Of a stretch of 64,000 nt of DNA, positions 21,105 through 44,839 are shown piece by piece (within the stretch, counting starts at the first letter, position 1; every line of letters begins with the position of its first letter). Source of the stretch: Clostridia bacterium (GTDB taxonomy: Bacteria > Bacillota > Clostridia > Christensenellales > Pumilibacteraceae); NCBI GenBank assembly GCA_017623455.1, contig JAGAPA010000012.1:982-64981 (forward strand), given 5' to 3'. Both the position numbers and the translations under genes were made by a program. A model generated the notes under the pieces. It saw nothing but the letters and a program-made list of their open reading frames with translations, had not been told where the DNA came from and ran no database searches.

Positions 21105-21150
21105 AATAAGACAAACTATACAATTTTGTATCGTTATTTCATAAAAAACT

Positions 21151-23562
21151 TTATTCTTCAGCAACGGCTTTAATATTAAACGTTGCGCCCGCAAGTTCGT
21201 TGTTATACACCGTCAAAGAGATTTTTCCTGCCTTTTTTGTACGGATTACGGCAAGCGCTCTGCCCTTAAACACGTGGCACTTGTTGCTTGTATAATCATC
21301 TTCGTTGCAAGGATTTGCACTATAGATTCCCAGAAGCTCTCCTCCCCAAACCTTACATTCAATCTCGCCTTCGTAGTCGGTACATACTCTGCCGTTTTTA
21401 TCGGTAACAGTAATATCCACGTAACAAAGATTTCTGTTGTCTGCCTTAATTGTTTTAAGCTCTGAGGAAAGGTTGATTTGCGAGGCTTTATCGCAGGTTT
21501 CAAGTTTGTAAGAAGCGCTAACGCTACCGTTTCTATAAGCAATAGCTTCTATATAACCTTTTATATAAACAGTTTCTAATGACGCAATAGCCTTTTTAGG
21601 CACACTTTCGCCTATCTTCTCACCGTTTACAAACCACTCTACCTTGTCAGCGCTTGTGTAAGTTTCTACCTTGATAGGTTTTCCCACATATTTATCGTCA
21701 TACGTCCAGCTCTCGTTTACGTCGTAAAAATGCCAATGCGTTCCCGAAAAACCTTCACCAAAATGCTCGGGGTGTGTGGTAAAAATTCTAATTTCCGTAT
21801 CTTTACCCCAAACAGCCTGTCTGAAGTATGATTGCGGACGGCGATTGCAACACATATCCAAGTCGCCCTGATAACAGCTTCTCCAGGGATAATACAAAGG
21901 TCTTATCTTTCCCACCTTTCCATCTCTTGCCCATTGAGCTAAGCCTGTTCCGACTTCTCCCATATTATCATAAGCAGTCCAAACAAAATCACCTAAAATA
22001 TAGTTTCTCTCATTGATTTTTTGCCAAGCATCATACGCATCAATGGCGTGAGTTTCGCTGCCCCAAATAGGCTTGTCGGGATAATAACTGTACTCATAAT
22101 CATAAGCCTCTATTTCGTAGTTTAATCCCGTAATATCCAAGGGCTTTTGAAAGCCTTTTGCGTTTTTAGTTAAGCCTTCCCATCTATTTTCCGACTTAAA
22201 TCGATTAAATCTCTCTTCTATATATTGTTTATAATCTTCAGGATCACTTTCTTCAGCAAGCGGCCATCTTGCAAACCCTTTTTGCATAGCAGACGTTACA
22301 AAGTTTTTATCGTCATATTTTCTAATCTCGTCAGACAATGCTTCCGACCACTCTGCCGTACCTTTAGTTCCGTTTATTTCAAATAATTCATTTCCAATAG
22401 AATAAGATATTACGCAAGGATGATTTCTATCTCGTAAAACCATATAAGAAACGTCCCTTATTGCCCAATCACTGAAAAACACGTTATAATCCCTAAAACA
22501 TCTTGCCGTTGTTTTATTCCACTTGTCAAACGCTTCATCCATTACAAGCATACCAAGTTTATCACAAACTTCCAAAAAGGCAAGCGATGGTGGGTTATGA
22601 GCACATCGTATTGCATTATATCCGGCATCTTTCAATCTTTTTATTTTTCTATACTCTGCATCAGGAAACGCGCTTGCACCCAAAACAGCGTGATCGTGAT
22701 GTACACATCCGCCGTAAAGTTTGATAAATTGTCCGTTAAGCAAAAGTCCGTTTTTAACGTCTGCCGTAACCGTTCGGATTCCAAACGCATTTTCACTCTC
22801 ATCTTCAACCTGACCGTTTATTACAATTTCGGTTTTAAGCGTATAAAGATTGGGGGTGTCCAAATCCCAGAGCTGTGCATTGTTTATGGTTATAACACGC
22901 TCAAATTGCTTTTTACTATTCCGTGTTACGGTAATAGCTTCGCTCTCGCTACGCACTTCCGCTCCGTCGTATAATACGGTAAACTTAATATCCGCTTTTG
23001 TGTCGATATCTGACGTTACTACATAACGCAACCTGACGTCAGCATTTCCGTTTTCTATCTTATTTGTAGCGATATACATATCTCTCGGCTCTATTCTAAC
23101 CTTGCCACCTTCCCACAAAAAGACGTCACGATATATTCCATTACCCGTATACCAACGAGTTGAAAAAGGTAAAGGACGAGTTTCGATAACAAGCTTATTT
23201 GTTCTGTTTTTAAGAACACAATCAGTAAGATCCACGAGATATGGCGTATATCCGTACGGATGCATACCCATAAAGTTTTCGTTAAAGGTTACGTACGTAA
23301 GCATATACGCTCCGTCAATATCCAAAACGTAATGCTTATTTTCTTCAAACGTAAGATACTTAACGTACTTTCCGTTTGTGTCGGGATAAAAACCGTTATT
23401 CCTATCCCCACTGTCATACGTTACTTCGTCACCTATATTGGCTTTACGCTTATGCTTAATCTGATAATCGTGGGGCAAATCAACCTCTTCGTATTTTTCA
23501 TACTCAAACCCCGGATTTGCATTGTAAAATTTCCAATCTTTAGAAATACATATTTTCTTCAT
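21151..23562 (-). CDS. Glycoside hydrolase family 2 protein (GH2-A), cytoplasmic
   Basis: N-terminus WKF...DLPHDYQI. TIM-barrel motifs are IRCAHNPPS and NHPCVISYSIGNE (acid/base Glu). No signal peptide. The RBS AGAGGG lies 22 nt after the activase stop. Confidence 0.85.
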   Translation of the reverse strand: MKKICISKDWKFYNANPGFEYEKYEEVDLPHDYQIKHKRKANIGDEVTYDSGDRNNGFYPDTNGKYVKYLTFEENKHYVLDIDGAYMLTYVTFNENFMGMHPYGYTPYLVDLTDCVLKNRTNKLVIETRPLPFSTRWYTGNGIYRDVFLWEGGKVRIEPRDMYIATNKIENGNADVRLRYVVTSDIDTKADIKFTVLYDGAEVRSESEAITVTRNSKKQFERVITINNAQLWDLDTPNLYTLKTEIVINGQVEDESENAFGIRTVTADVKNGLLLNGQFIKLYGGCVHHDHAVLGASAFPDAEYRKIKRLKDAGYNAIRCAHNPPSLAFLEVCDKLGMLVMDEAFDKWNKTTARCFRDYNVFFSDWAIRDVSYMVLRDRNHPCVISYSIGNELFEINGTKGTAEWSEALSDEIRKYDDKNFVTSAMQKGFARWPLAEESDPEDYKQYIEERFNRFKSENRWEGLTKNAKGFQKPLDITGLNYEIEAYDYEYSYYPDKPIWGSETHAIDAYDAWQKINERNYILGDFVWTAYDNMGEVGTGLAQWARDGKVGKIRPLYYPWRSCYQGDLDMCCNRRPQSYFRQAVWGKDTEIRIFTTHPEHFGEGFSGTHWHFYDVNESWTYDDKYVGKPIKVETYTSADKVEWFVNGEKIGESVPKKAIASLETVYIKGYIEAIAYRNGSVSASYKLETCDKASQINLSSELKTIKADNRNLCYVDITVTDKNGRVCTDYEGEIECKVWGGELLGIYSANPCNEDDYTSNKCHVFKGRALAVIRTKKAGKISLTVYNNELAGATFNIKAVAEE

Positions 23563-23584: not shown

Positions 23585-24472
23585 TTAACTTACTTTTATA
23601 TCAACAATTCTTCTAATAATCTCTACGGCTCTTTGTCTGTCTTCTTCCGTTGGAACAAGTTGAGGCAACGTGTTTTTAACACCTATCGCTTCATATTTTG
23701 ACGAGGCGTAATTGTGATACGCCAAAACTTTTATAGCAGTTACGTTTTTAAGCGACTTTATAAATTCTGCGATCTTTTCGATTTGATTATCATTATAAGC
23801 CGGAACGTACGGAATACGAATTTCAACCTTTGCTCCCATATCGTCTAAATATTTCAAATTCTCTAATATAGCTTTATTACTTACTCCTGTACACCTTTTA
23901 TGCACGTCTTCATCAAACGCTTTTACGTCGTATAAAAACGTATCCACATATGGAAGAACGCTGTCTATCGCAGTTTTGCTTACACATCCGCAAGTATCAA
24001 CAGCTGTATTTATTCCGTGTTCTTTAAGTTTTTTCAAAAGCTCGGTACAAAACTCGTACTGAAGTAAACACTCGCCTCCCGACAACGTTACTCCGCCGTT
24101 AGAGTCCTTATAAAAGTCAATATCTTGCAATAGAATTGGCAATAAGTCGTCCACGCTATACTCTTTGCCGTACAGCTTGATAGCATCAAAATAACATTCT
24201 TCCTCACACTTTCCGCACGCAATACAGTTTTCGCGAATAAAAACGTGTTTATCGTCTTTTATTGCGTGAGCGCCATTAGGGCAAACCCTTACACAGTTGC
24301 CACATTTCACGCACTTATGTTGATATATTGAAAGTTCGGACTGTTTTTTCAAACTTTCGGGGTTATGACACCACACGCAGGATAGCGGACAACCTTTGAA
24401 AAACACAGTTGTTCGCACTCCATCGCCATCGTGAACGGCAAACCTTTTAATTTCAAAAATATTTGCTTTCAT
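23585..24472 (-). CDS. Glycyl radical enzyme activating enzyme (radical SAM)
   Basis: CPLSCVWC is the CxxxCxxC cluster. There are two ferredoxin-like motifs, CVKCGNCVRVCP and CIACGKCEEEC, plus GGVTLSGGE. The gene lies 11 nt downstream of the GRE. Confidence 0.9.
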   Translation of the reverse strand: MKANIFEIKRFAVHDGDGVRTTVFFKGCPLSCVWCHNPESLKKQSELSIYQHKCVKCGNCVRVCPNGAHAIKDDKHVFIRENCIACGKCEEECYFDAIKLYGKEYSVDDLLPILLQDIDFYKDSNGGVTLSGGECLLQYEFCTELLKKLKEHGINTAVDTCGCVSKTAIDSVLPYVDTFLYDVKAFDEDVHKRCTGVSNKAILENLKYLDDMGAKVEIRIPYVPAYNDNQIEKIAEFIKSLKNVTAIKVLAYHNYASSKYEAIGVKNTLPQLVPTEEDRQRAVEIIRRIVDIKVS

Positions 24473-24483
24473 ACTCCACTCTC

Positions 24484-26715
24484 TTATATAAGCGCTTCAG
24501 CCTGTTTTATAAATCCTTCCTGCTCGTGAGGCGGAATATTGTTCCAAAGCACGTTCCAGCCTGCAACTCTTATTTGTAAGTCCGCATACTTTTCGGGATT
24601 CTTTTGTGCATCTCTTAAGGTTTCCGCATCAACTATGTTTATTTGCAAAGCATGACCGCCTCGATTAAAGTAGGTTTTAACTAAGCCGTACAACGCTTGC
24701 AACCCGTCATCACCCTTTACGGCAGAGGGAAGTACACCCAAATCCAAGCATACGTCACCCACGCAGTTCGTTGCATCAACCTTAGTAACGGTAAGAATTG
24801 CCGCGGTTGCTCCTTCCCTATTTTGTCCAACGCAAGGTGAGGAATTTTTTGCAAGCTCTTCGCCTTTAAGTCTGCCACTAGGAAGTGATGCCGTCTTTTT
24901 GCCCTGCTCGTAGTACTGTCTTGCCACGTGATACCCTGCGTTAAACCAGTATCCACCACGGTTTGACGCGTTTTTTCTGTGGTTAAGATAGCCACTTATG
25001 CTCTCATCGATATCCACTGCTAAGCTATCGGGAAAATCCTTGTTATTTCCGTATTTTTCCCTATCGTTTAATAGTTTTTGACGGAAAAGCTCGTGACCTT
25101 CGAAGTTGTTATCGATAATGCTTACAAATTCTTCAAGCGTGAGTTCTTTTCTGTCATACACGTACTTCTTTAGCATTGTAAGTGAATCCACAACGTCAGC
25201 AATAGCACCAAACATCATAAACGACGAGCACGAAACAGACTTTCTTGCTATAGCATCCAAGCCTTTTTCCAAGCAATCCGGTATTGTTGCGGAAAGCATT
25301 GGCAACGGATTAATTTCCGCAAGATAATCTTCGTAGCCGTTAACTATTTCTACCGTTTTGTCAATTAAGGCAAACAACTGTTTTTTATACTCGGCATACA
25401 AATCATCAAACGTTTTATACTCGTAGGGTGCCGGGCTTTTTTGTAGAATAAACGATTGGTCAATTCCGTCGTACCCACCGTGAAGAACAAATTCTAAAGG
25501 CTTTACAAGGTTAATATAATTCATTCCTGTTCCAAAGTCGCCCTGCTTAGCATACTCGTAACAGCCTTTTACGTCGCAAAGTCTTGCTTCTTCTTCCGTT
25601 ACGCCCAAATTCTTAATTAGCGACTGTCTGATTAGTTTATCACCGACAAGCACAAAGCTGTTTCTTCCACGCCTTATCATATCCAACACTTTAAGCATAA
25701 ACTTTTCGGGCGTAGACTCAGCAACTTTTATTTGAACTTTGGGGTTAAAAATTCCCATTTTGTCATATACGTCTACAAAAATATAGGAAAGTTCGTTGAT
25801 TACGCTACTTCCGTCTGCGTTTTCTCCACCAAGATATACGGGCTGTCCCCAATAGTTGCCAATAGCAGTGAATTGCAAGAAAAAGTAAGCAATCTCTTCT
25901 CTTATCTGCTCTTCGCTCACACCGTTTTCGATATCGTGCTTATAGAATTTGTAAAGTTGACGGTCAAAATTACACAACGAACGAACCTGCAGTCCTTCTA
26001 TATGCTCGCATATCATAAAATAGATATAAATCAAAAGTAAGGCTTCATAAAAAGTCTTGGGGGGATTTTGAGAAATATTGTCAAGAGCTACAGCCAATTT
26101 TTCAGAACCTTTAGTATTCTTTGCAAGTAAGCTCATACGCTTTACAATACCAATAATAGCTTCGTATTCTATTTTGATTGACTCGTAAAAAGCTTCTTTT
26201 TCTTCGCTAAGTTTGCCTTTTTGCTTGCGGATATTTTCACTATCGGCAAGTATTCCACTAAAACCAAGGTCAAATAGTCTATCCCAAATAGGAACGCTAT
26301 GATCGTAGTCAAGCCAAATTGTTGCAACGCCTTTTCTTTGAAGATTAATTCTCTCTGCATGATTTTCGGGAATTACGTTTTGCAAAATTTCGTTTCTCCA
26401 CATATCAGATAAGGTAACTCTCAGCAATCTATCCGTAGAATTGATTGCAGGAAAAATATCCCTACTGTCGCAAGAAATTCTTGTGTTTTTCAAAACAAAC
26501 TCAAGCCCCCTTGCTTTTCGTATGCAATGCGGTAAATGCTCGTACTTCTTGTCGTTTTCAAATATTCCCTGTTTTATATCGTCGCCGTTCATTCCCGTGT
26601 TTTCGTCAAAGATTTCATCTCTGCGAATATATCGCATAAATGGATCAAATGGCTTTTTTGTATCGTGATACTTATTAGAAATGTACTCGTAGTCAGCATC
26701 TTTTATATAAATCAT
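24484..26715 (-). CDS. Glycyl radical enzyme (GRE-A), pyruvate formate-lyase superfamily, substrate unknown
   Basis: The C-terminal glycyl loop is LQIRVAGWNVLW (Gly codon 24559-24561). The Cys loop is DVKGCYEY (Cys codon 25561-25563). Length is 743 aa, with a GGAGG RBS. Confidence 0.85.
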   Translation of the reverse strand: MIYIKDADYEYISNKYHDTKKPFDPFMRYIRRDEIFDENTGMNGDDIKQGIFENDKKYEHLPHCIRKARGLEFVLKNTRISCDSRDIFPAINSTDRLLRVTLSDMWRNEILQNVIPENHAERINLQRKGVATIWLDYDHSVPIWDRLFDLGFSGILADSENIRKQKGKLSEEKEAFYESIKIEYEAIIGIVKRMSLLAKNTKGSEKLAVALDNISQNPPKTFYEALLLIYIYFMICEHIEGLQVRSLCNFDRQLYKFYKHDIENGVSEEQIREEIAYFFLQFTAIGNYWGQPVYLGGENADGSSVINELSYIFVDVYDKMGIFNPKVQIKVAESTPEKFMLKVLDMIRRGRNSFVLVGDKLIRQSLIKNLGVTEEEARLCDVKGCYEYAKQGDFGTGMNYINLVKPLEFVLHGGYDGIDQSFILQKSPAPYEYKTFDDLYAEYKKQLFALIDKTVEIVNGYEDYLAEINPLPMLSATIPDCLEKGLDAIARKSVSCSSFMMFGAIADVVDSLTMLKKYVYDRKELTLEEFVSIIDNNFEGHELFRQKLLNDREKYGNNKDFPDSLAVDIDESISGYLNHRKNASNRGGYWFNAGYHVARQYYEQGKKTASLPSGRLKGEELAKNSSPCVGQNREGATAAILTVTKVDATNCVGDVCLDLGVLPSAVKGDDGLQALYGLVKTYFNRGGHALQINIVDAETLRDAQKNPEKYADLQIRVAGWNVLWNNIPPHEQEGFIKQAEALI

Positions 26716-26846: not shown

Positions 26847-27614
26847 ATGAAAAACAAATGGTCAAATATAATAATAACAGGCATAACGCTTGCTTTACAC
26901 GTATCTACAAACAGCGTTAAATATCACACAAACCGTCCTAATCACGGATTCGTTATCAACAATGAAACAAGCGAAAAAGATTACTACTTTTCGGACGGAA
27001 CGGTTATGCATACGGGTCCAAACGAAATTTTTTATCTTCCAAAAGGATCTACTTATTCTATTAAAGAGAACGAAAAAGGCACTTGCTACGCCATAAACTT
27101 TAACGCAGATATTGAAGATAAGCCGTTTTGTATAAAACTGAGGAACAACGAGGATTTGCTTAAGAACTTCAAAAGAGCTTGCGTTGAGTGGAAAAAACAA
27201 TCCGCTCTTAAAAACTCGTATGCCTTAAGAGCGGTTTATGACTTTATTATACAAGCAAGAAAAGAACTTGATAAGGATTATTTATCAAAAGAAAGCTTGG
27301 GAATTATTGCGCCGGCTGTGAACGTGATTACTACGGATTTTACAAACCCAAATCTTACGATTTCCTACCTTGCTTCTCTATGTAAAATAAGCGACGTTTA
27401 TTTTAGGAAAATCTTTATGAATAAATTTGGAATATCACCTAAAAACTATATAATTCAAAAGAGAATTGAGTATGCAAAGCAACTAATTGACAGCAAACAG
27501 TTTTCGATGTTAGAAGTCGCTCAATCGTGCGGATACGAAGAACAATGCCATTTCTCGCGCGAGTTTTCCAAGCGCGTGGGAATGTCGCCACAGGAATACA
27601 AAAAGCAAAATTAA
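26847..27614 (+). CDS. AraC family regulator (type 1), divergent from GRE-A
   Basis: AraC HTH tail ...VAQSCGYEEQCHFSREFSKRVGMSPQEYKK. RBS AAGAGG. It is a paralog of the gene at 33389. Confidence 0.85.
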   Translation: MKNKWSNIIITGITLALHVSTNSVKYHTNRPNHGFVINNETSEKDYYFSDGTVMHTGPNEIFYLPKGSTYSIKENEKGTCYAINFNADIEDKPFCIKLRNNEDLLKNFKRACVEWKKQSALKNSYALRAVYDFIIQARKELDKDYLSKESLGIIAPAVNVITTDFTNPNLTISYLASLCKISDVYFRKIFMNKFGISPKNYIIQKRIEYAKQLIDSKQFSMLEVAQSCGYEEQCHFSREFSKRVGMSPQEYKKQN

Positions 27615-27622
27615 AATACAAG

Positions 27623-27655
27623 AAAAGACGGTAAACCATTCAGTTTACCGTCTTT
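27623..27655. terminator. Bidirectional intrinsic terminator (homologous to 21071-21104)
   Basis: Hairpin AAAAGACGGTAAAC-CATTCA-GTTTACCGTCTTTT. Confidence 0.6.
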
Positions 27656-27701
27656 TAACAAAACAAACTATACAATTTTGTGTCGTTATTTCATAAAAAC
27701 C

Positions 27702-30095
27702 TTATTCTTCGTCAACGGCATTTATATTAAACGTTGCGCCCGCAAGCTCGTTGTTATAAACAGTTATAGAAAGATTTCCTGCCTTTTTAGTGCGAATTAC
27801 CGCAAGCGCACGACCTTTGAATACGTGACACTTATTACCTGTATAATCGTCCTCGTTACAGGGATTTGCGCTATGTATTCCAACAAGCTCTCCTCCCCAA
27901 ACCTTACACTCTATCTCGCCTTCGTAGTCGGTGCATAATCTGCCCTTACTGTCGGCAACTGTTATATCCACGTAACAAAGATTTCTGTTGTCTGCCTTAA
28001 TCGTTTTAAGCTCTGAGGAAAGATTAATTTGCGAAGCTTTATCGCAAGTTTCTAACCTATAAGACGAGTATGCCTCTCCACCTCTATACGTGACAGCTTC
28101 TATATAGCCTTTTTCGTAAACCGTTTCTATTGATGCAATATTTTTTTCAGGTACGCTTTCGCCAATCTTTTTGCCGTTTACAAACCATTCCACTTTTTCT
28201 GCACTTGTGTACGTTTCCGCCTTTATTGGTCTTCCCACGTACTTATCGTCATACGTCCAGCTCTCGTCAACGTCATAAAAATGCCAATGAGTTCCACTGA
28301 ATACTTCGCCAAAATGCTCGGGGTGCGTGGTGAAAATTCTGATTGGGGCGTTTTCTTCCCAGATAGACTGTCTGAAGTACGATTGGGGCTTACGGTTCAT
28401 ACACATATCCAAGTCGCCTTGATAACAGGTTCGCCAAGGATATTCGAACGTCCTAATTCCGGGAACGTATCCATCTCTGAGCCATGAACTTTTACCTGCG
28501 CCAACCTCTCCCATATTATCGAACGCCGTCCAGTTAAAGTCGCCCAAAACGTAATCGTTTTCCATAACCTCTTTCCAAGAGTCATACGCGTCTATCGAAA
28601 AGGTTTCGCTACCCCAAACAACTCTATTAGGATACATTTCGTGGTCTACGTGATAATTTTCATAGTTGTAATTAATTCCAATCAAATCCAGCGGTTTTTC
28701 GTATTCTTTACAAATCTCGTTGACCTCTGCGTAAGTTTTGTTATTAAGTTTGTTTTTTAGATATTGTCTATAATCGTCGGGATCTATTGATTCGGATTTT
28801 GGATTAGTTGCAAACCATTTCTGAACTCCTGACGTTACGGGTCTTGTTTCGTCGTGCTGTTTTACGTACTGAGTGAGAAGATTTGCATACTTTTCCGCAC
28901 CGTTCTGACCGTTAATTTCGGTAATCTCGTTTCCTATAGAGTAAGAGAACACGCAGGGGTGATTACGTTCGCGCTGTACCATATACGAAATATCTCGCTC
29001 GCACCATGCCTCGAAGAAAAGGTTATAATCCCTCGGTCTTTTTCTGAACTGCCAAGTATCGAATGCCTCGTCCATTACTATCATTCCAAGCCTGTCGCAA
29101 ACTTCTAAAAACGCTAACGAGGGTGGATTGTGGGCGCAACGCAAGGCATTTAAGCCTGCGTCTTTAAGTCTTTTAACCTTTCTATACTCCGCATCGGGGT
29201 ACGCCGCAGAGCCTAAAATTCCGTGGTCGTGGTGAATACATCCACCTTTGAGTTTAATTTGCTTACCGTTAAGCAATAGTCCGGTATTTACACCTATGCT
29301 GATAGTGCGGATTCCAAATGTGTTTTCGCTTTGATCTACAAGCTCGCCCTTTACGTAAATATCAGTTTTAAGTGTATAGAGGTTAGGGTTGTCCACGTCC
29401 CAAAGATGTGCGTCGTTTACTGTGATAATGTGCTCAAACTGCTCTTTTTTACCTTTTTTTACGGTTAAATTCAGCGATTTTGACAATACCTCGTTACCCT
29501 CGTACAAAACGGTAAACTTTACTTCAGCCTTTGTATTTTTATCCGAATTTATCCAATAGCGAAGTCTAACCTCGGCATCGTTTCCTTCAATCTTGTTGGT
29601 GGAAATAAACATATCCCAAGGCTCTATTCTAACCTTGCCGCCTTCCCACAAAAACACGTCGCGGTATATTCCGTTTCCACTATACCAACGCGTACTGTGC
29701 TCTAAAGGAAAGGTTTCTATTGCAAGTTTATTATTCATGCCTTTTAGTATAAAGGGCGTAAGATTAACAAGATAGGGCGTATATCCATAAGGATGTTTTC
29801 CAACCATATTATCGTTGAACGTAACGTACGTCATCATATACGCTCCGTCTATATCCAATATATAATTCTTATTTTCCTCAAAGGTAAGATACTTAACGTA
29901 CCTGCCAGGCGTGTCGGGATAATATCCGTTTCCACTATTACCACTATGTGGAGTCACCCAATCCCCCACGTTCGCCGTACGCTTTTGCTTTATTTGATAG
30001 TCGTGTGGTAAGTCTACGTCGACGTAATTCTTAAACGGACGACACAACTCTGTGCTTGAAAACTTCCAATCTTTAGAAATACACCTTTTCTTCAT
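27702..30095 (-). CDS. Glycoside hydrolase family 2 protein (GH2-B), cytoplasmic paralog of GH2-A
   Basis: It is collinear with GH2-A along its whole length. Motifs are LRCAHNPPS and NHPCVFSYSIGNE. RBS is GGAGGAG. Confidence 0.85.
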   Translation of the reverse strand: MKKRCISKDWKFSSTELCRPFKNYVDVDLPHDYQIKQKRTANVGDWVTPHSGNSGNGYYPDTPGRYVKYLTFEENKNYILDIDGAYMMTYVTFNDNMVGKHPYGYTPYLVNLTPFILKGMNNKLAIETFPLEHSTRWYSGNGIYRDVFLWEGGKVRIEPWDMFISTNKIEGNDAEVRLRYWINSDKNTKAEVKFTVLYEGNEVLSKSLNLTVKKGKKEQFEHIITVNDAHLWDVDNPNLYTLKTDIYVKGELVDQSENTFGIRTISIGVNTGLLLNGKQIKLKGGCIHHDHGILGSAAYPDAEYRKVKRLKDAGLNALRCAHNPPSLAFLEVCDRLGMIVMDEAFDTWQFRKRPRDYNLFFEAWCERDISYMVQRERNHPCVFSYSIGNEITEINGQNGAEKYANLLTQYVKQHDETRPVTSGVQKWFATNPKSESIDPDDYRQYLKNKLNNKTYAEVNEICKEYEKPLDLIGINYNYENYHVDHEMYPNRVVWGSETFSIDAYDSWKEVMENDYVLGDFNWTAFDNMGEVGAGKSSWLRDGYVPGIRTFEYPWRTCYQGDLDMCMNRKPQSYFRQSIWEENAPIRIFTTHPEHFGEVFSGTHWHFYDVDESWTYDDKYVGRPIKAETYTSAEKVEWFVNGKKIGESVPEKNIASIETVYEKGYIEAVTYRGGEAYSSYRLETCDKASQINLSSELKTIKADNRNLCYVDITVADSKGRLCTDYEGEIECKVWGGELVGIHSANPCNEDDYTGNKCHVFKGRALAVIRTKKAGNLSITVYNNELAGATFNINAVDEE

Positions 30096-30241
30096 ATTCT
30101 CCTCCTTTTCTTCATTTTCTGTTTATTCGGTTTACATTACGCATTTTTAATGCTATAATAAGATTATATTCCAAAATTTACCGTTTGTAAATGGAAAATA
30201 TTACATTCATATATGAAAATATTACAATTCGGGAGCTTTTA

Positions 30242-31024
30242 ATGTATATCTTAAATTCAACGAACAATGATAAAATCTATCCTGCCGTTTTACTCACTGC
30301 CTCAAACAGACACGTTCAAGAAACCAAGAACTACAGTAGCGGCATGCGCAGTTATCAGATTCTGATTATTACGGAAGGCAGAGGCACGCTTGAACATAAC
30401 GGTTCTTATTATCCTTTGAAAAAGGGTTGCGCGTTCTTTACCGCTCCAAATATTCCCATAAAATACACAAACGAGGACGGTCTTATCAGTATTTTTGTAA
30501 CCGCCAATGGCTGTGCTATACAAGAAATTTGCAACAAGTTTGAGCCAAGCGGTTTTGCATTTTTCGAAAGTGTTAACACAGACAAAATATTAAGTGATAT
30601 AAACACTATCGAACAAGAATTCTGCAGTCAAAAAAGACAAAGTAAGCTGTCCATTCTTGCTTACGCTTTCTTTTTGGAATTTTTTGAATCAAACGCTTAT
30701 AATAACGGAAACTATCTTGCAAAGATAATGGACTTTATTGACAAGAATTACACGAAACAAATCACGCTTGAAGAAATTGCTAAGGAATGTGGAGTATCCG
30801 TATCAAAGCTTTGCTATGACTTTAAGACTACGTACGGTATTACAGTTTTTAGCCACGTTATAAACTTAAGACTGAATTATGCGCGCTCTTATTTACTATA
30901 CGCGTCCGAACTTCGCGTAAAAGACGTTGCTGCTGCGAGCGGATTTGAGGACGTAAGTTATTTTTGCAAGGCTTACAAAAACAAATACGGCGTATCTCCA
31001 AGCATGGATATGCAAAAGAATTAA
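30242..31024 (+). CDS. AraC family regulator (type 2)
   Basis: ATG at 30242 is preceded by GGGAG and matches the start of the decayed paralog. The track start at 30191 has no RBS. The HTH tail is ...AAASGFEDVSYFCKAYKNKYGVSP. Confidence 0.8.
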   Translation: MYILNSTNNDKIYPAVLLTASNRHVQETKNYSSGMRSYQILIITEGRGTLEHNGSYYPLKKGCAFFTAPNIPIKYTNEDGLISIFVTANGCAIQEICNKFEPSGFAFFESVNTDKILSDINTIEQEFCSQKRQSKLSILAYAFFLEFFESNAYNNGNYLAKIMDFIDKNYTKQITLEEIAKECGVSVSKLCYDFKTTYGITVFSHVINLRLNYARSYLLYASELRVKDVAAASGFEDVSYFCKAYKNKYGVSPSMDMQKN

Positions 31025-31071
31025 AATAAAAACACGTTACCCTGCTGTATTTTGGATAACATGTTATTTTA

Positions 31072-33231
31072 TTAGTCGTTAAGTTCTGATTGTTTTATAA
31101 ACGCGTCCTGTTCAGCTTTTGATAAGTTTACGAAATATGCATTCCATCCACACACTCTTACTTGTAGGTTTTTATAATTTTCGGGATGGGCTTGAGCCTC
31201 TTTTAGCATTTTGGAGTCAAATACGTTTCCGTGCATTGCAAAACCGCCCTTTGCAAAATACGTTTTTAATATCCCGTAAAATGCGTTAAGTCCGTTATCT
31301 CCGCTAACGGCAGACGGATGTAAAACCACGTCTAATACCGAGCCTGTTGGGAATAACGAATGATCGAACGAGGTTACCGAATTGATAAGCGATGTTATAC
31401 CCGTCTTATCCATTCCTATGCTTGCACAAAGGTTTTTTGACAACGGCTCGCCCAATTTTCTTCCGTCGGGCGTTGCCAACGTTTTTGCGCCGATATGCAC
31501 GTAATGGTCAATGGTAAAACAAGCGGGCTTATACACTCCTCCTCTACCGTTTGGGCGATTTAAGAGCAAACTTGAACAATACTCGGCAAATTCCACCGTA
31601 AATTTATCCGCAACAGCGTTGCTGTTTCCATACTTTTCATCTATCGCTCTTGCTTTTAGCTGTAATTCCTCATTGCCTTCCCAATTATTTCTTAGAATTT
31701 CGCCAAGTTTATCAAAAGATACTATTTTTTCATCAAACACAAACTTTTTAACAGCGCAAATACTATCCACTAAGGATGCTAGACAATAAAAGTACAAGGA
31801 CGTATTATTATACTTTGCTCCACCCTCATATACGTCTACACCTCTTTTTATGCTTTCGTCATACTGACACGAAAGCATTGGGTCGGGGTTGATTTCACCG
31901 TAATAACCCTCTATTGCATTAATAAAATGCACGCACCTGTCCGTCATATTTGCTATTTGTTTTTTCACTTCACGAACAAAATCCTCGTACGTAGAAATTT
32001 TACCAACAGGCGCGCCCATAACTTTATTATTTCTATGGTCCACGCCGTTATTGAAAATATACTCTATTGCTTTTCCAAGATTTATTCCACCATTTCCGGT
32101 ACAGCCTATCTCCACTCCCCACACGGCAGGCTCGTAACAACCGATAGGCACGTAGTTTACAGCATCTTTGTGACTTATTCCCACACGTTCTAGCGACTTT
32201 ATAGCAACGTGGTCATTGACAAGCACAAAGCTGGAATTTCCGCCTCTTATGCACGAAAGTACAAGCATAATAAATTCACGAGGGGTTTTATCCGACACTC
32301 TGATATGAATTTTTGGACTGTAAATATTAAGCTCGTTGTACGTTTCGACGATAAGATAGGACAGCTCGTTTACGATACTGTTCTCATTTTCGTCTAAGCC
32401 TGCAAGGCAAAACGGTAAATCATAAGGTACTTTTGCGCTCCAAAACTTAAAGAGAAAATATTTGAGCATTTCCTTGATCTGCTCTTTTGTATACACTCCC
32501 TCTTCTATATCCTTTTTATAGAACGGATATAAAAGCGCATCTACAATACCAAGCGTTCTTACTCTTGTTCCACCCACGTACTCGTGCAAGAAAAAGTATA
32601 AAACGAGAAGTTGCATTGCTTCGTAAGTGTTTTGTGGCTTATCCTTTGCTATATTACGCAACGCCGTAGCATTATCCGTATTATAAGGCTCGATAGCGTC
32701 GGCAAGACGGTGCGCAACCGTTTGCATTGACTTAAGCATTATTTTACACGACAGATAAAAATCCTTTTGTTTATCGGTTAATCCGCCTTTATTCTCAGCT
32801 TCCTCTACCCTTTGCAAAAGACCTGAAATTCCAACGTTTAACAATAGCTTAGAATTTGGAGAGGTATGTCCAAAGTCAGAATGTGCATGATATGCTCCGC
32901 AACCTTGCCACGCTTCGTATATATCGCCAGCCTCTTGCGATAAATGCTCGTCAATAACCTGCTTTTGCCACTTAGAACGCTGTTTAGCCATTATAGAACT
33001 ACCCTGAAGCTTATCTTGAAAAATGTTAAATTTATCAACCGCAATTAGAGCATTAGATGCAATAAACTCAAAAGTTTTGGCTTTTATAATAGCTTTTGAC
33101 GAATATTGATTTTCGATTCCCTCGACAGCTTTTACCACATCGTCGGGATTTAGTCCGCTATTTTCAAGCCACTCGGTTTGCGTAAATTCCTTTTCCAAAA
33201 CGGATCTGCTATTTTCAAAAGACAATTGCAT
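31072..33231 (-). CDS. Glycyl radical enzyme (GRE-B), divergent paralog of GRE-A, with no adjacent activase
   Basis: The glycyl loop is LQVRVCGWNAYF (Gly codon 31147-31149). The Cys loop is VPIGCYEP (Cys codon 32137-32139). Length is 719 aa, RBS AAGGAGAG. Confidence 0.85.
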   Translation of the reverse strand: MQLSFENSRSVLEKEFTQTEWLENSGLNPDDVVKAVEGIENQYSSKAIIKAKTFEFIASNALIAVDKFNIFQDKLQGSSIMAKQRSKWQKQVIDEHLSQEAGDIYEAWQGCGAYHAHSDFGHTSPNSKLLLNVGISGLLQRVEEAENKGGLTDKQKDFYLSCKIMLKSMQTVAHRLADAIEPYNTDNATALRNIAKDKPQNTYEAMQLLVLYFFLHEYVGGTRVRTLGIVDALLYPFYKKDIEEGVYTKEQIKEMLKYFLFKFWSAKVPYDLPFCLAGLDENENSIVNELSYLIVETYNELNIYSPKIHIRVSDKTPREFIMLVLSCIRGGNSSFVLVNDHVAIKSLERVGISHKDAVNYVPIGCYEPAVWGVEIGCTGNGGINLGKAIEYIFNNGVDHRNNKVMGAPVGKISTYEDFVREVKKQIANMTDRCVHFINAIEGYYGEINPDPMLSCQYDESIKRGVDVYEGGAKYNNTSLYFYCLASLVDSICAVKKFVFDEKIVSFDKLGEILRNNWEGNEELQLKARAIDEKYGNSNAVADKFTVEFAEYCSSLLLNRPNGRGGVYKPACFTIDHYVHIGAKTLATPDGRKLGEPLSKNLCASIGMDKTGITSLINSVTSFDHSLFPTGSVLDVVLHPSAVSGDNGLNAFYGILKTYFAKGGFAMHGNVFDSKMLKEAQAHPENYKNLQVRVCGWNAYFVNLSKAEQDAFIKQSELND

Positions 33232-33388
33232 TACATTCTCTCCTTATAAATGAAAATTCGTTTAACTTAGTATTATTGTATCAAAAGAATACGAAAAACT
33301 CAATAACTATTCAATACCGCTTGAATTATTCGAAACTAAAATCACTCAAAATACTTGACTTATCCATAACATTTGGTATAATTAGATT

Positions 33389-34174
33389 ATGAAATTTTTA
33401 GAAAAAGACAACGTAATATCTCAAATTACACTTGCAATTTTGCTGAAAGCAGGCAGAGGAACTCCCGTTCACAAAAACAGACCAACGCACGGACTTGCAT
33501 ACAACGTCAACCATACATGTATCTATAAGTTTGACAACGGTAAAGCGTTGGAAGTAAAATCGGGGGATTGTATCTACTTACCAAAAACATCCAACTACAC
33601 CGTTATAAAATGCGAAACCAATTCCAACAGCTCTGTTTATGCGATAAACTTCAACCTTACCAGCGAAGAAATATTCGAACCTCAGCTTTTCCATACGCGA
33701 GGTAAAAATGAGGTTGAAGCATTGTTTAATAAAGCTTCTAACGCTTGGCTAAACAAGAACGTGGGGTTTTATGAAGAGTGTTTTTCAGATCTTTATAGAA
33801 TAATTAAAATTCTAAAAAAAGAAAACTCGTCTTACGCTCCGCAATCGAAAATTCTTGAAACGTTAGCGCCTGCGCTTAAGTACATCAACGAAAATTACAC
33901 ACAAGAAAACATTAAACTATCCGTTCTTGCCCACCTTTGCAACGTAAGCGAACCATACCTACGACGGCTTTTTAATAACGCATTTTCTACTTCGCCTGCA
34001 GTTTATATAAGGAATTTACGTATCAATTATGCTAAAGAACTGATAAAATCGGGGGAATATACTATCACGGAAATTGCTATTATATCGGGGTTTTGCGACG
34101 TTTCGTATTTTAGCAGAGAATTTAGGAAAGCAACGGGTGTAAACCCTAAAGATTATGCCAAAGTCAAGCAATAA
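33389..34174 (+). CDS. AraC family regulator (type 1), divergent from GRE-B
   Basis: HTH tail ...IAIISGFCDVSYFSREFRKATGVNPKDY. Its N-terminus is paralogous to the gene at 26847 (HKNRPTHG versus HTNRPNHG; VYAINFN versus CYAINFN). Confidence 0.85.
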   Translation: MKFLEKDNVISQITLAILLKAGRGTPVHKNRPTHGLAYNVNHTCIYKFDNGKALEVKSGDCIYLPKTSNYTVIKCETNSNSSVYAINFNLTSEEIFEPQLFHTRGKNEVEALFNKASNAWLNKNVGFYEECFSDLYRIIKILKKENSSYAPQSKILETLAPALKYINENYTQENIKLSVLAHLCNVSEPYLRRLFNNAFSTSPAVYIRNLRINYAKELIKSGEYTITEIAIISGFCDVSYFSREFRKATGVNPKDYAKVKQ

Positions 34175-34204
34175 AAAAGGCTACGCTACAACTATATTAA
34201 AGAG

Positions 34205-34247
34205 AAAACAAACACGGAATCAAAAAGCGATTCCGTGTTTGTTTTTT
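34205..34247. terminator. Bidirectional intrinsic terminator
   Basis: Hairpin AAACAAACACGGAATC-loop-GATTCCGTGTTTGTTT followed by a T-run. Confidence 0.6.
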
Positions 34248-35235
34248 ACGCTATCATATTATCTATATATATTCCATATCCTCGCGTCGGATCGTTTACG
34301 AAAACGTGCGTTACCGCTCCTATTATCTTACCGTTTTGAATAATGGGCGATCCGCTCATCCCTTGCACTATTCCACCCGTAAGTTCGATAAGCCGTTTGT
34401 CCTTAACCTTTATTATAAGACCCTTATCCCTGTCGGTCTTTTGATAAAATGCGCGGATAATTTCTATATCGTAAAACTCCTTACTGCCGGACACAGCAGA
34501 GCATATCTGCGCCTTTCCCGGTTTTACTTCTTCTCTGTCAGCAACGGCGTAAACATCCGAGTCTTTTATAAAGGTATCACCGTAAATTCCAAACTTATTT
34601 ACGGACGTGATATCACCAACTTTTTGACTGCTTAAATATCCACACAATGCGCCGGCGCATCCCTTTTCTCCCTTTTTTATACCGTTTATTATACAGCCAT
34701 AAACCGTTCCGGTTCCACTATCCAACCGTACCGCGGTTTCACTGTCGGTTACGGAATGTCCAAGCGCGCCAAATTCTCCGTCTTTTGTAACAAACGTAAG
34801 CGTGCCAAGTCCTGCAACACTATCCTTTGCCACAATTCCTAATTTTTTAATGCCCGTGTGCTTATCTTTTAGCGGTACAACCTTTACGCAAGACACTTTT
34901 CCGTTGCGTTCAAATTCTATACTCACACTTTTTTCATCGGCAATCCTACTAAGATAAAGTGAAATATCTCCCACTTTTTTTATCTCAACTCCGTCAATAG
35001 AAATTATTTTATCGCCCTTTACGAAAACGTTTTTCAAATTTTCCGTTCCGTTTTCTGTTTCAACGTTGTTCACCGACACTATTCTGACTCCCTCATAGGG
35101 AATGGAAAAACCAACGATATCTCCACCTATATATACGTTTTCCTGCGCAAACGCAACTGACGTTCCAAAGCTAACTAAAATAAGCGCAAATACAAATATA
35201 ACCAGTATGCACGACTTTCTCAAGATTTTTTTCAT
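34246..35235 (-). CDS. spoIVB: Stage IV sporulation protein B (SpoIVB peptidase, S55) with PDZ domain
   Basis: C-terminus GGIVQGMSGSPIIQNGKIIGAVTHVFVNDPTRGYGIYI is the classic SpoIVB serine motif. An N-terminal TM segment and a PDZ-like segment are present. Confidence 0.85.
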   Translation of the reverse strand: MKKILRKSCILVIFVFALILVSFGTSVAFAQENVYIGGDIVGFSIPYEGVRIVSVNNVETENGTENLKNVFVKGDKIISIDGVEIKKVGDISLYLSRIADEKSVSIEFERNGKVSCVKVVPLKDKHTGIKKLGIVAKDSVAGLGTLTFVTKDGEFGALGHSVTDSETAVRLDSGTGTVYGCIINGIKKGEKGCAGALCGYLSSQKVGDITSVNKFGIYGDTFIKDSDVYAVADREEVKPGKAQICSAVSGSKEFYDIEIIRAFYQKTDRDKGLIIKVKDKRLIELTGGIVQGMSGSPIIQNGKIIGAVTHVFVNDPTRGYGIYIDNMIA

Positions 35236-37709: not shown

Positions 37710-39578
37710 TTACTTCAATTTTACCTTAAATATAGCGGAATCGCAACCTGCAACAGTTTTTCCGTCGCCTTTTATAGGCGTTACGGTTGCACCCTCTGCC
37801 CACTTAACGTCACAAGGACGTTCTTCGTCCACGTAGTTAATAACCACTGCGTAGAACTCTTTTTCATTTATTGGGTGTACTGTTACTGCAATATCGGGAT
37901 TTTGGGTATAGGCGGGCTTTGTCTTAAGAATATTTTCGCCTGCGGTTTTATAGATTTTGTAATAAGGGTACTTATTGATATAATCAACGTTTTCTACGAG
38001 CATTTTCTCTAAAGGACAGTTGAGGAAATACGTATAGCCCTTTCCGTACTTAAACTTTGTAAGAACGGGAGTTCCGTCACTTTCATCCCTTGCAAGAACT
38101 TCGGCACCAATGCTTTCGATAAGGAATTTCTTTCCATAACGGAAGGGGAATTTATCTCCGTTAAACTCGGCAATATGCGTTGAGTTGTCCATAGGTGCTC
38201 CCTTTGATACAAACCCAAAGGCTTCGTAAAGATTGAGTAGCGCTGCGTCGTGTGCGGTGATAAGGAGGCTTGCTCCGTCCTCTTTTACCCTTCTTAATAT
38301 CTCATTGTACGTGGACTTTCTTACAAGTTGCCAAAACTCGTCCGACGCAATTATATACAAGGGATACTCGGGAATTGTTTGCGTGGAATACCTGAAAGTA
38401 GGCTCGAGTCCTGCTTGCTTTGCAAGAACGTATGCTGACGATACCAAATATTGGTATGCGTTCATTCTTTCACCGATTATAAAGCAAGTGTCTTTAATCC
38501 TGTCGGGAAGATCGGCGCAAGGCAAAGAGGAAATCTCGTCGTATACTCTTTTCATTGTTTGCGCAACGGGCTTGGGAGAATAATCGGTTCTGAGCATTCC
38601 AAGCTCGTTTTCCATCAAAATCCACTCGTACGGAGGATTATTTCTTTGCGTATCGTGCGCCATCCACCAAAAATATCCGGTAGAACCGTTAGCCCAACCC
38701 GACCATAAATTCACCTGCATAAACAGAGCGGATTGCTCTTCCGTTCCGTAAAGCGTGGTGAACGTGCCTTGCTCCTGAATCTGAGCAGGCTTTCCGCCAA
38801 TGGACGAATAAAGCTCAACCTGTGCGGTGGGAACCATTGTAGTACGAAGCTTTGTCATTGCTTCAAGATGTCCTCCAACCGTAGGCGATGGGTAGGGATG
38901 AGGGGTGAGCATATCACACCACTCTGCCTGATCCTGAATAAGCCAATGACTCCAGCTCTGATCCTCTACCTGAAGAGCGTGCATGCCCGAATAAATCTTT
39001 CTCGTCTGATCTTCGGACTTGATTGCGTTGACTATGGTATACGTCCAGTTGATTGCCTCGTATCTGGACGCTTCGTGTCCCATATTATTACTCTCGTTAC
39101 CCATATCCCAAGCGTGGATTGCTTTTTTATGCTTGAGGAATTTTACGAAACCCTTAACATACCTGGTCATCCAAGCAAGGCTTTCGAAGTTATTCATTTG
39201 GTTCTTACCCTGAAGCGCGTGTGGCACGTAATGGCGACCGCTCATCCAACCGGTAACGATTGCAACGACGATTTTAATTCCGTTCTCCTCACACAAGTCA
39301 CAGAATCTGTCGAAGTGCGCAATCTTTTCCATATCCAAGCCGTAGATATTATCAAGGGGCTTATCATCTTCAAAAAGCGTTTCCTTGTATTCGCCGTTCT
39401 GTTTATAAATGTTCACAATAGGCTGAAAATCTCTCCAGTTAGGGAAAACACGCATATATTTTACGTTCCACTTTGCAAGCTCTTTAAGATCTCTTGCAAC
39501 AGACTCCTCGTCCCAATATTTCCACATATCGATACCGTACTTAGAGCCCCAATAATTTACACCAACTTCATATTTCAT
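37710..39578 (-). CDS. Clan GH-A (GH5-like) TIM-barrel glycoside hydrolase, cytoplasmic
   Basis: N-terminus GVNYW...DLKELAKWNVKYMRVF. WDMGNESN is the candidate acid/base motif and IQEQG the candidate nucleophile. No signal peptide. Confidence 0.5.
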   Translation of the reverse strand: MKYEVGVNYWGSKYGIDMWKYWDEESVARDLKELAKWNVKYMRVFPNWRDFQPIVNIYKQNGEYKETLFEDDKPLDNIYGLDMEKIAHFDRFCDLCEENGIKIVVAIVTGWMSGRHYVPHALQGKNQMNNFESLAWMTRYVKGFVKFLKHKKAIHAWDMGNESNNMGHEASRYEAINWTYTIVNAIKSEDQTRKIYSGMHALQVEDQSWSHWLIQDQAEWCDMLTPHPYPSPTVGGHLEAMTKLRTTMVPTAQVELYSSIGGKPAQIQEQGTFTTLYGTEEQSALFMQVNLWSGWANGSTGYFWWMAHDTQRNNPPYEWILMENELGMLRTDYSPKPVAQTMKRVYDEISSLPCADLPDRIKDTCFIIGERMNAYQYLVSSAYVLAKQAGLEPTFRYSTQTIPEYPLYIIASDEFWQLVRKSTYNEILRRVKEDGASLLITAHDAALLNLYEAFGFVSKGAPMDNSTHIAEFNGDKFPFRYGKKFLIESIGAEVLARDESDGTPVLTKFKYGKGYTYFLNCPLEKMLVENVDYINKYPYYKIYKTAGENILKTKPAYTQNPDIAVTVHPINEKEFYAVVINYVDEERPCDVKWAEGATVTPIKGDGKTVAGCDSAIFKVKLK

Positions 39579-39778
39579 AATTGACTCCTTATTAGTTAGT
39601 TTTATTACGCCTTGTTTAGGTCTATTTTATTGTAACATATCTGTAGTGGTTTGACTATTCACTATTTGATAAGCATTATGCATTTTTTTGGATTTTTAAT
39701 ATTTTTTTGTTTTTTGTTAAAAAAAACGTTGACACAATACAAAAAATACGGATATAATTATCGGGTAGGAGATTTCTT

Positions 39779-44825: not shown

Positions 44826-44839
44826 TAAGGAGTTTTATT

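Follow-up and report, generated by a model that had tools for sequence, protein, structure and literature searches.

Gene content and predicted transcription units

The 64-kb stretch of Clostridia DNA analyzed here (contig JAGAPA010000012.1), called the window throughout, lies within a 355-kb scaffold. The analysis concerns its positions 27702 to 33231, where a gene for a family-2 glycoside hydrolase (GH2), GH2-B, and a gene for a glycyl radical enzyme (GRE), GRE-B, stand beside GRE-A, a GRE activase, and GH2-A. Read along the minus strand, the gene order was SpoIVB, AraC3, GRE-B, AraC2, GH2-B, AraC1, GRE-A, activase, and GH2-A, with the three AraC-family regulator genes on the opposite strand. 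GRE-B (31072 to 33231) encodes 719 residues with a PFL-like and a Gly_radical domain, and GH2-B (27702 to 30095) encodes 797 residues with five Pfam domains; both are predicted to be monocistronic. The AraC2 gene between them (30191 to 31024) encodes a cupin-type regulator of 277 residues with Pfam AraC_binding/Cupin_2 and helix-turn-helix (HTH) domains. The open reading frame (ORF) listing and the Pfam search located GH2-B, GRE-B, and the intervening AraC gene as a preliminary description of this DNA had reported them, and the two GRE-B motifs named there, RVCGWNAYF (with Gly695) and GCYEP (with Cys365 and Glu367), were present. Upstream of GRE-B lie AraC3 (33389 to 34174, plus strand, 261 residues, Pfam HTH_18/HTH_AraC) and SpoIVB (35235 to 34246, minus strand). 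On the other side, AraC1 (26847 to 27614, plus strand, 255 residues, assigned by Pfam) precedes a predicted minus-strand operon, in which GRE-A (24484 to 26715, 743 residues) is the first gene, the activase (23585 to 24472, 295 residues) the second, and GH2-A (21151 to 23562, 803 residues, five Pfam domains) the last.

All three AraC genes are divergent from their neighboring target gene, with intergenic regions of 157 bp for AraC3/GRE-B, 95 bp for AraC2/GH2-B, and 131 bp for AraC1/GRE-A. AraC2 is in addition convergent with GRE-B. Inside the GRE-A-activase-GH2-A series the gaps are 11 bp and then 22 bp. Terminator-like hairpins were found after GRE-B, GH2-B, and GH2-A and also after SpoIVB. 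The minus-strand hairpin 3′ of GRE-B (31025 to 31071), identified by reading the sequence, has the form AACATGTTATCC...GGGTAACGTGTT followed by a T-run. It was missed by a simple terminator scan because its stem is imperfect. Homologous hairpins lie 3′ of GRE-B in the related loci L007, L012, L096, and L097 (loci of other genomes are given by L numbers), and the hairpin is probably bidirectional, serving the convergent AraC2 as well. The site of GH2-B (27623 to 27656, minus strand) consists of a 15-bp stem and a T-run, and the hairpin 3′ of GH2-A spans 21105 to 21070 on the same strand. An Rfam scan found no RNA element in the locus; its only match was a tRNA cluster at 49.6 to 50.1 kb, where six tRNA genes are located (49602 to 50148, plus strand). 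From this anatomy, three transcription units are likely: AraC3 with GRE-B, the cupin-type AraC2 with GH2-B, and AraC1 with GRE-A-activase-GH2-A.

The regulators were compared with those of related genes in other genomes. For the GRE-B family, the GTDB genome collection was searched at the species level with a family alignment, which yielded 80 loci with 37 full-length genes. GRE-A family contexts were taken from four looked-up loci and from loci that happened to hold both families. A divergent AraC gene accompanies 29 of the 37 full-length GRE-B family genes, and all sampled GRE-A family genes are preceded by a divergent AraC gene of 253 to 256 residues. In L006, the AraC encoded upstream of the GRE-B-like gene shares 52% of residues with AraC3, and the one upstream of the GRE-A-like gene shares 52% with AraC1; AraC1 and AraC3 themselves are only 33% identical. 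The L012 counterpart of AraC1 is 84% identical to it. AraC2 showed 86% identity to the regulator in L096 and 44 and 42% identity to the AraC proteins encoded upstream of the GH2 genes of L010 and L011, both loci without a GRE. The cupin domain was detected by Pfam in AraC2 and in neither AraC1 nor AraC3. In L012 and L007 the AraC3/GRE-B intergenic region is conserved at >90% identity (about 94–95%). By these relationships AraC3 is assigned as the regulator type of the GRE-B family and AraC1 as that of the GRE-A family, and AraC2 goes with this GH2 clade rather than with a GRE. Because the AraC types vary together with the GRE type and AraC1 and AraC3 share only one-third of their residues, different inducers, and so different substrates, are favored for the two GREs.

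Separate histories of the units and of the GH2 pair

The organization of the locus was compared with that of related loci. In L012, from the metagenome-assembled genome (MAG) SIG392, and in L007, SpoIVB is followed by AraC3, GRE-B (95% identity), AraC1, GRE-A (93 and 87% identity, respectively), the activase, and GH2-A; AraC2 and GH2-B are absent. L010 contains, in the same slot, SpoIVB, a cupin-type AraC gene, a GH2 gene, and a Spo0A_C-like gene, with S11 and M50 genes further on and no GRE. In L011 a cupin-type AraC gene is paired with a GH2 gene of the GH2-A clade that has no activase upstream, and in L008 the series GH115-helicase-AraC1-GRE-A-activase-GH2-A is found at a different site. 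L096 carries SpoIVB, AraC3, GRE-B (83% identity), AraC2 (86% identity), and an orthologue of GH2-B that is 95.6% identical over 613 residues up to the contig end. L097 carries SpoIVB, AraC3, GRE-B (81% identity), the terminator, a remnant of AraC2 with the GH2-B promoter, and a GH2-B orthologue that is 90% identical over 510 residues, again up to the contig end. Both contigs stop before the C-terminal tract of GH2-B described below, so that these orthologue identities exclude it. In L097 (4174 to 4353) the cupin-type AraC gene is mostly deleted, with about 45 nucleotides of its 5′ end and the GH2-B promoter left, and the GH2-B orthologue there has lost its regulator. Since both L096 and L097 have GH2-B after GRE-B, the GRE-B/AraC2/GH2-B neighborhood appears to be ancestral in a small clade, and L012 and L007 appear to have lost AraC2-GH2-B. 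The comparison with L007 and L012 had suggested that AraC2 and GH2-B were an insertion specific to the window, a view that was overturned by the orthologues in L096 and L097.

Synonymous divergence (dS) differed strongly between the genes. Relative to L012, dS was 1.25–2.6 for the flanking genes, 0.75–1.08 for AraC3, AraC1, GRE-A, the activase, and GH2-A, and 0.28 for GRE-B. Relative to L096 it was 2.3 for SpoIVB and 1.96 for GRE-B, compared with 0.58 for AraC2 and 0.55 for GH2-B. At the nucleotide level, the segment 31080 to 33800 of the window, which comprises the 5′ part of AraC3 and GRE-B with its promoter, is 91–98% identical to positions 9400 to 12160 of L012, the closest species representative. 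Identity falls to about 85% in the remainder of the GRE island and to 67–77% in the flanking core genes. This pattern suggests that the GRE-B segment was recently recombined or transferred and that a breakpoint lies within AraC3. In its GRE-B allele the window thus agrees with one lineage and in its AraC2-GH2-B allele with a different one, which fits independent cassettes and not a single module. AraC-GRE units were found repeatedly directly downstream of spoIVB in a diversity of Clostridia MAGs (L006, L022, L049, L093, L096, L097, and L012) and at 31072 to 35235 of the window. Between spoIVB and the Spo0A_C-like, S11, and M50 genes there appears to lie a hotspot for catabolic cassettes headed by an AraC gene. 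Beyond the 3′ end of GH2-A, a minus-strand ORF of 545 residues (18917 to 20554) has an unusual regulator architecture, an N-terminal AraC-type HTH (residues ~85–176) fused to a C-terminal BNR_2 sialidase-like β-propeller (residues ~259–521). This ORF is absent from the syntenic position of L012, together with a segment of ~2.2 kb (18874 to 21064).

The distribution of GH2 genes next to these GREs was assessed in the same loci. The association is clade-specific, at the operon level for GH2-A and as adjacency only for GH2-B. The GRE-A-activase-GH2-A operon was found in the window, L012, L008, and L009 and in none of L006, L033, L050, and L092 to L095. Adjacency of GRE-B and GH2-B was limited to the window, L096, and L097, with separate regulators and terminator-like hairpins. 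No GH2 neighbor was detected outside the clade of the window in the survey of the 37 full-length GRE-B family genes, and none was present at the four sampled GRE-A family loci (4 of 4), all of which have a divergent AraC. In other genomes, the neighbors that recur are a lactonase-like SGL protein, esterases of the SASA and GDSL types, an EamA transporter, and an FAD oxidoreductase. A cluster that combines both GRE families with carbohydrate esterases and a single activase was found repeatedly in further Clostridia MAGs (the whole of L033, L006 at 5900 to 14800, L059, and L095 at 7100 to 12000), and clusters of the L033 type provide a lead to the GRE pathway.

GRE-B and GH2-B could still form a real functional pair, in which the sugar or aglycone set free by GH2-B would first act as the inducer for AraC3 and then as the substrate of GRE-B, parallel to GH2-A and GRE-A. 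The series SpoIVB-AraC3-GRE-B-(AraC2)-GH2-B has been kept in the window, L096, and L097 at a dS of GRE-B of about 1.4–2; GH2-A shares an operon with GRE-A in four loci; and the relatives of both GRE families occur among SASA/GDSL esterases, the SGL lactonase-like protein, and other glycoside hydrolase genes. However, L012 and L007 maintain GRE-B under purifying selection without GH2-B, AraC-GH2 units without any GRE exist in L010 and L011, GH2 neighbors are lacking at the other loci of both families surveyed, and the GRE-B and GH2-B alleles differ in history. Units of AraC and glycoside hydrolase genes are, moreover, common in the window anyway. A cupin-type AraC gene (43944 to 44825) lies directly upstream of a third, distantly related GH2 gene (44840 to 47182), both on the plus strand. 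Another AraC gene (39779 to 40609) is divergent from a gene for a 622-residue protein with a faint GH42M match, within 37710 to 40609, and a GH32/GH43-like gene is located at 41884 to 43095. In a window so dense in such units (e.g. 43944 to 47182), adjacency of GRE-B and GH2-B comes cheap, and we regard a functional pair as rather unlikely.

The two GH2 proteins were then compared along their length. Both contain the Pfam domains Glyco_hydro_2_N, Glyco_hydro_2, Glyco_hydro_2_C, DUF4982, and Glyco_hydro2_C5, and thus the sugar-binding, Ig-like, and TIM-barrel parts of a GH2 enzyme. Overall identity was 68% at the amino acid level (543/803, BLASTP) and 70% at the nucleotide level, rising to 82–92% of amino acids in the last ~170 residues. 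The preliminary description had estimated about three-quarters identity by eye with a higher value at the C terminus; the trend was right and the overall value somewhat too high. Its estimate of about one-third identity for the GREs agrees with the computed 35% (248/714, BLASTP), and the unequal divergence of the GH2 and GRE pairs that it described is far beyond chance and survived phylogenetic and dS analysis. The similarity of GH2-A and GH2-B is lowest at residues ~400–500 (30–37% identity), between two putative catalytic Glu residues in the SIGNE and WGSET motifs (Glu390/Glu497 in GH2-B and Glu392/Glu503 in GH2-A), which are taken, as in GH2 enzymes generally, to be the acid/base and the nucleophile. 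From this low identity between the catalytic residues we infer that the specificities of GH2-A and GH2-B probably differ.

In sliding windows, the nucleotide identity of the two GH2 genes was mostly 50–70%. From about 28344 to 27640 it was mostly 77–93% (partner 21793 to 21090), with one 60-nt window at 62%. The whole putative conversion tract (27616 to 28344, minus strand; partner 21064 to 21793 in GH2-A) spans codons ~584–797 of GH2-B, a 3′-untranslated stretch of ~45 nucleotides, and the terminator-like hairpin. Over the 88-nt noncoding 3′ flank including the terminator, the two genes are 81% identical. Nei-Gojobori estimates for codons 1–583 gave a nonsynonymous divergence (dN) of 0.29 and a saturated dS of 3.6, and for codons ≥584 a dN of 0.09 and a dS of 1.06. 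Neighbor-joining trees with 200 bootstraps were calculated separately for the catalytic core (residues 231–560) and the C terminus (residues 625–797). The core tree shows a monophyletic GH2-A clade (support 1.0) and places GH2-B with the GH2 of L010 (0.96) and not with GH2-A. In the tree of the C terminus, GH2-B falls within the clade formed by GH2-A of the window, L012, and L008 (1.0), with L011 outside. Within the tract, GH2-B and GH2-A are no further apart than GH2-A and its own orthologues, which overall are 91% (L012, codon alignment), 86% (P0242/L008), and 79% (P0244/L011) identical to GH2-A. Because the trees are incongruent along the gene, dS drops locally, and the similarity extends into noncoding DNA, the C-terminal quarter of GH2-B (the 3′ ~0.7 kb) is, on this evidence, gene-converted from a GH2-A-type gene, and GH2-B is of putatively mosaic origin.

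High identity at the C terminus might alternatively result from stronger purifying selection, and the DUF4982 region (columns 601–680) is indeed fairly conserved in all homologues (0.65–0.84 identity). Selection on the protein, however, fits neither the fall in synonymous divergence from 3.6 to 1.06 nor the conservation of the noncoding flank. Columns 681–840 are among the least conserved in other homologues (0.45–0.65). GH2-B also moves inside the GH2-A clade in the C-terminal tree with full support, whereas L011, a true GH2-A orthologue, is only 51–65% identical to GH2-B in this part. Selection alone is therefore a very improbable explanation. Outside the tract, GH2-A and GH2-B can be classed as old relatives with saturated synonymous sites and different affinities of the catalytic core, and the pair looked young by eye because of the 3′ conversion tract. 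The proposal of a much more recently homogenised GH2 applies to the 3′ ~0.7 kb, where dS is about 1, and not to codons 1–583, where dS is saturated and the core groups with L010.

These data also bear on a tandem duplication of an ancestral GH2 + GRE (+ activase) module, after which the GREs would have diverged anciently and the GH2s would have been homogenised recently over their full length. Two GH2 and two GRE genes do alternate on one strand, GH2-A was the best full-length match to GH2-B in a search of 5.8 billion proteins, a 3′ conversion tract exists, and GRE-B and GH2-B are also neighbors in L096 and L097. Such a duplication is nonetheless difficult to reconcile with the large families and cognate AraC types that GRE-A and GRE-B each have in distant genomes, with the grouping of the GH2-B core with L010 and its dS saturation, with regulators of different type (cupin domain in AraC2, not in AraC1 or AraC3), and with the separate occurrence of the units in other genomes. 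It is largely refuted already by the region-specific trees, and we consider it improbable.

The two GREs and the activase

Both GREs have the same two Pfam domains (in GRE-B, PF02901 PFL-like with E = 2.9e-102, followed by PF01228 Gly_radical with E = 1.6e-20). The Cys loop reads GC365YE367P in GRE-B and GC385YE387Y in GRE-A, and the Gly loop reads RVCG695WNA and RVAG719WNV, respectively. GCYE and RV(C)GWN are invariant in both family alignments. Searches at E ≤ 1e-30 retrieved 675 relatives for GRE-B and 920 for GRE-A. Each protein has its own ~60%-identical set; the source is in most cases an uncultured Clostridia/Oscillospiraceae MAG, and most entries carry the name "hypothetical protein." Both GREs scored below every NCBIfam GRE cut-off: for the HypD, CutC, HpsG-HpfG, HPAD, IAD, and PFL equivalogs the scores were 3- to 14-fold too low, and for the broad model TIGR01774 they were 377 (GRE-B) and 315 (GRE-A) against a cut-off of 678. 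Among proteins with a solved structure, Archaeoglobus fulgidus PFL2 is the best match of GRE-B and HypD that of GRE-A (about 245–275 bits). Clustering at 48% identity of 92 full-length short GREs (700–760 residues) from the fetched loci, which drew on L006 and L012 to L091, gave at least 22 families; GCYE and RVCGWN[A/V/E] are present in almost all members, and a divergent AraC gene accompanies most of them. A full-text literature search found no paper on the GRE-A or GRE-B families or on a GH2-GRE link; one general review was useful. GRE-A and GRE-B are accordingly classed, by sequence comparison, as members of two different, widespread, uncharacterized short-GRE families and not as diverged duplicates. 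Of the two origins that the preliminary description had left side by side, an old GRE duplication or two different GREs, the second is favored by the separate sets of relatives and the separate AraC types.

The CXE motif, defined for GRE eliminases and isomerases in PMC13450708, places GRE-A and GRE-B with the radical 1,2-eliminases and isomerases. Active-site residues of GRE-B were read from a HMMER alignment to B12-independent glycerol dehydratase (GD). His122 corresponds to GD His164, Ser282 is replaced by Arg223, which is invariant, and Asp447 is replaced by Gly379. Because of the two replacements GRE-B does not appear to be a canonical diol dehydratase. The GRE-B family has an invariant GTRVRTLG motif (residues 221–228 with Arg223 and Arg225; ~32550 to 32571 of the window), and the GRE-A family has QVRSL (residues 241–247, with Gln243 and Arg245); both align to the His281-Ser282 substrate loop of GD. 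The invariant Arg223 and Arg225 hint at an anionic substrate.

An AF2 model of GRE-B, calculated from a 22-sequence alignment, had a pLDDT of 87.3 and a pTM of 0.88, with low pLDDT in the Gly loop (693–697) and at 602–610. Foldseek matched the model to GD, propanediol dehydratase (PD), HypD, CutC, and PflD with probability 1.00 and TM scores of 0.84–0.87, so the modeled fold is not the defective one that would have spoken against the preliminary description. Between GRE-B and its L012 orthologue, dN/dS was 0.027/0.28, a ratio of about 0.1. With its motifs intact, purifying selection, and an intact predicted ten-stranded barrel, GRE-B looks functional.

A single activase gene (23585 to 24472) was found in the window, as previously described, by tblastn with two different activases and by a CxxxCxxC scan in six frames; it lies 6.6 kb from GRE-B. 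Its product scored 336.9 with TIGR02494, the model of the PflA/PflC activase family (cut-off 174.35), and matched Pfam Radical_SAM. It contains CPLSCVWC at residue 28 and Fer4 matches at residues 49–99, corresponding to a ferredoxin-like insert. Outside its own clade, the activase is closest (56–63% identity) to activases directly downstream of GRE-B family genes, and it is 59–64% identical to activases downstream of GRE-A family genes. The two GRE families thus have activases of a single orthogroup as neighbors. Among the 37 GRE-B family genes, the activase is the next gene in 12 and the second to fourth gene in 7; in 14 none is present within four genes, and 4 genes lie at contig ends. All six loci with both GRE families (window, L012, L006, L033, L050, and L059) hold just one activase of this orthogroup. 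L006 has an extra, more distant activase (44% identity), which follows a GRE that is the third at this locus and unrelated to the other two. The L033 genes are arranged as AraC (divergent), GRE-A, SASA, SGL, GRE-B, GDSL, EamA, and activase, which looks like one operon. The Gly loops of GRE-A (RVAGWNV) and GRE-B (RVCGWNA) differ at 2 of 7 positions, and the last 75 residues, comprising the glycyl radical domains, are 48% identical compared with 35% overall. Documented cross-activation of GREs involves conserved Gly loops (PMC13450708, section 2.5).

One activase shared by GRE-A and GRE-B is the most probable reading of these comparisons, and we hold it with moderate confidence. The earlier suggestion of a single activase for both enzymes is thus plausible in light of the shared orthogroup, the one activase per dual-family locus, and the near-identical Gly loops. 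GRE-B might instead depend on an activase of its own at another place in the genome, or be an unactivated relic, with the neighboring activase specific for GRE-A. GRE activases are usually described as GRE-specific, with cross-reactivity mainly between very similar GREs (PMC13450708). Because 14 of the 33 GRE-B family genes with readable downstream sequence have no activase within four genes, remote activases must exist in some genomes, and the present search spanned 64 kb only. Yet activases of the same orthogroup as that of the window stand directly behind GRE-B family genes in many genomes, a single member of this orthogroup is present at each of the loci with both families, and the Gly loops are nearly alike. 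A relic is further contradicted by the dN/dS ratio, the intact catalytic motifs, and the confidently predicted fold of GRE-B. We judge a dedicated activase or a relic to be unlikely, though somewhat less so than a functional pairing of GRE-B with GH2-B.

Interpretation and comparison with known systems

We consider it quite probable that positions 27702 to 33231 comprise two independent single-gene catabolic units beside a third one. The three units would be cassettes that can be exchanged separately within a variable slot beside spoIVB, with GREs of two families, a 3′ conversion in GH2-B, and an activase that is probably shared. A second module parallel to the first, as the preliminary description had it, does not agree with the separate AraC genes and hairpins, the separate histories, and the occurrence of the units apart from each other (GRE-B without GH2-B in L012 and L007, and AraC-GH2 without a GRE in L010 and L011). 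Each GRE would be induced by its own AraC regulator in response to its own small molecule, and the activase would install the glycyl radical on the GRE. A thiyl radical on the loop Cys would then take a hydrogen atom from the substrate, and the loop Glu would assist C–O (or C–N or C–S) cleavage. A small, possibly anionic molecule derived from a carbohydrate would probably be the substrate. GRE-B, without an activase of its own, would most probably be activated in trans by the neighboring activase.

Several points weigh against this interpretation. GH2-A is truly co-operonic with GRE-A in this clade, and the adjacency of GRE-B and GH2-B has been kept in at least three lineages (window, L096, and L097), so a functional link is possible. 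Consensus scans for promoters and terminators gave no more matches than shuffled sequences; only strong hairpins were therefore used, and the units are read from anatomy. The carbohydrate-derived or anionic class of the substrate is deduced only from the gene neighbors in other genomes and from two Arg residues aligned to a GD loop. The review PMC13450708 holds no experimental precedent for activase sharing between GREs that are only 35% identical, and the search for a second activase covered 64 kb of the 355-kb scaffold.

The architecture of the locus, AraC-headed catabolic cassettes in a recombining slot and a conversion tract between GH2 paralogues, is ordinary. Its interest lies in two sizeable GRE families without an assigned function, listed as "hypothetical protein" in public records, whose dedicated regulators could be used to find the inducers. 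More broadly, and only tentatively, GRE-A and GRE-B could be part of a large, little-studied radiation of short, AraC-paired, CXE-type GREs in Clostridia of herbivore and animal guts, which would perform new radical C–O cleavage reactions on carbohydrate-derived, possibly anionic substrates and would all share one interchangeable activase orthogroup. If the orthogroup is interchangeable in this way, one activase would serve GREs that are only ~35% identical and differ in function. If the GH2-A/GRE-A operon represents a real pathway, glycoside hydrolysis would be linked to radical chemistry in gut anaerobes.

The closest solved structures to GH2-B are GH2 β-galactosidase-type proteins. The GH2 proteins resemble the BgaD-type GH2 β-galactosidases (4YPJ and 7CWD) and the NCBIfam GalA/GalB proteins in their five-domain architecture, including DUF4982 and C5, and in the acid/base NE and nucleophile E motifs. 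They differ from the GalA/GalB equivalogs in score, with 455 and 416 bits for GH2-B and 426 and 416 bits for GH2-A against a cut-off of 900 bits.

GRE-A and GRE-B share with the GRE 1,2-eliminases (GD 1R8W, PD 5I2G, HypD 6VXC, and CutC) the PFL-like barrel and glycyl radical domain at 22–25% identity, the CXE Cys loop, the RVxG Gly loop, and an activase type with a ferredoxin-like insert (TIGR02494). Unlike these enzymes, they have an N terminus that is about 60–100 residues shorter, no microcompartment genes nearby, and a dedicated AraC each, and their scores are far below the HypD and CutC equivalog cut-offs (295 versus 1100 and 236 versus 1050). YbiW and PflD are GRE sugar isomerases acting on 1,5-anhydroglucitol-6-P and 1,5-anhydromannitol-6-P (PMC13450708). 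They form a pair of related CXE-type GREs whose related substrates are anionic and carbohydrate-derived, and GRE-B matches PflD (8YJO and 8ID0) with E values of about 1e-65 to 1e-68. Compared by score and gene context, the matches to YbiW/PflD (185–233 bits) are no closer than those to other eliminases, and, unlike in the anhydroglycolysis context of YbiW/PflD, no phosphotransferase system, kinase, or aldolase genes were found near the GREs in the window and about 90 loci. The best GRE-B match among solved structures is the uncharacterized PFL2 of A. fulgidus (2F3O, E = 1.1e-80), which has a similar CXE loop (GCVE) and Gly loop (RVAGWSAYF). PFL2 differs from GRE-B in its length of 776 residues, and the two are about 25–30% identical.

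For the activase, the nearest parallel is PFL-AE of E. coli, which acts on PflB and TdcE (PMC13450708, section 2.5). There, as is proposed here, one radical-SAM activase serves two GRE paralogues whose Gly loops are nearly the same. PflB and TdcE, however, have an identical Gly loop (RVSGYAV) and the same chemistry, whereas GRE-A and GRE-B, for which sharing is deduced from comparison, are 35% identical, have different regulators, and presumably act on different substrates. The locus thereby offers a natural test case for the determinants of activase-GRE specificity, a question named in the 2026 GRE review (PMC13450708, section 2.5).

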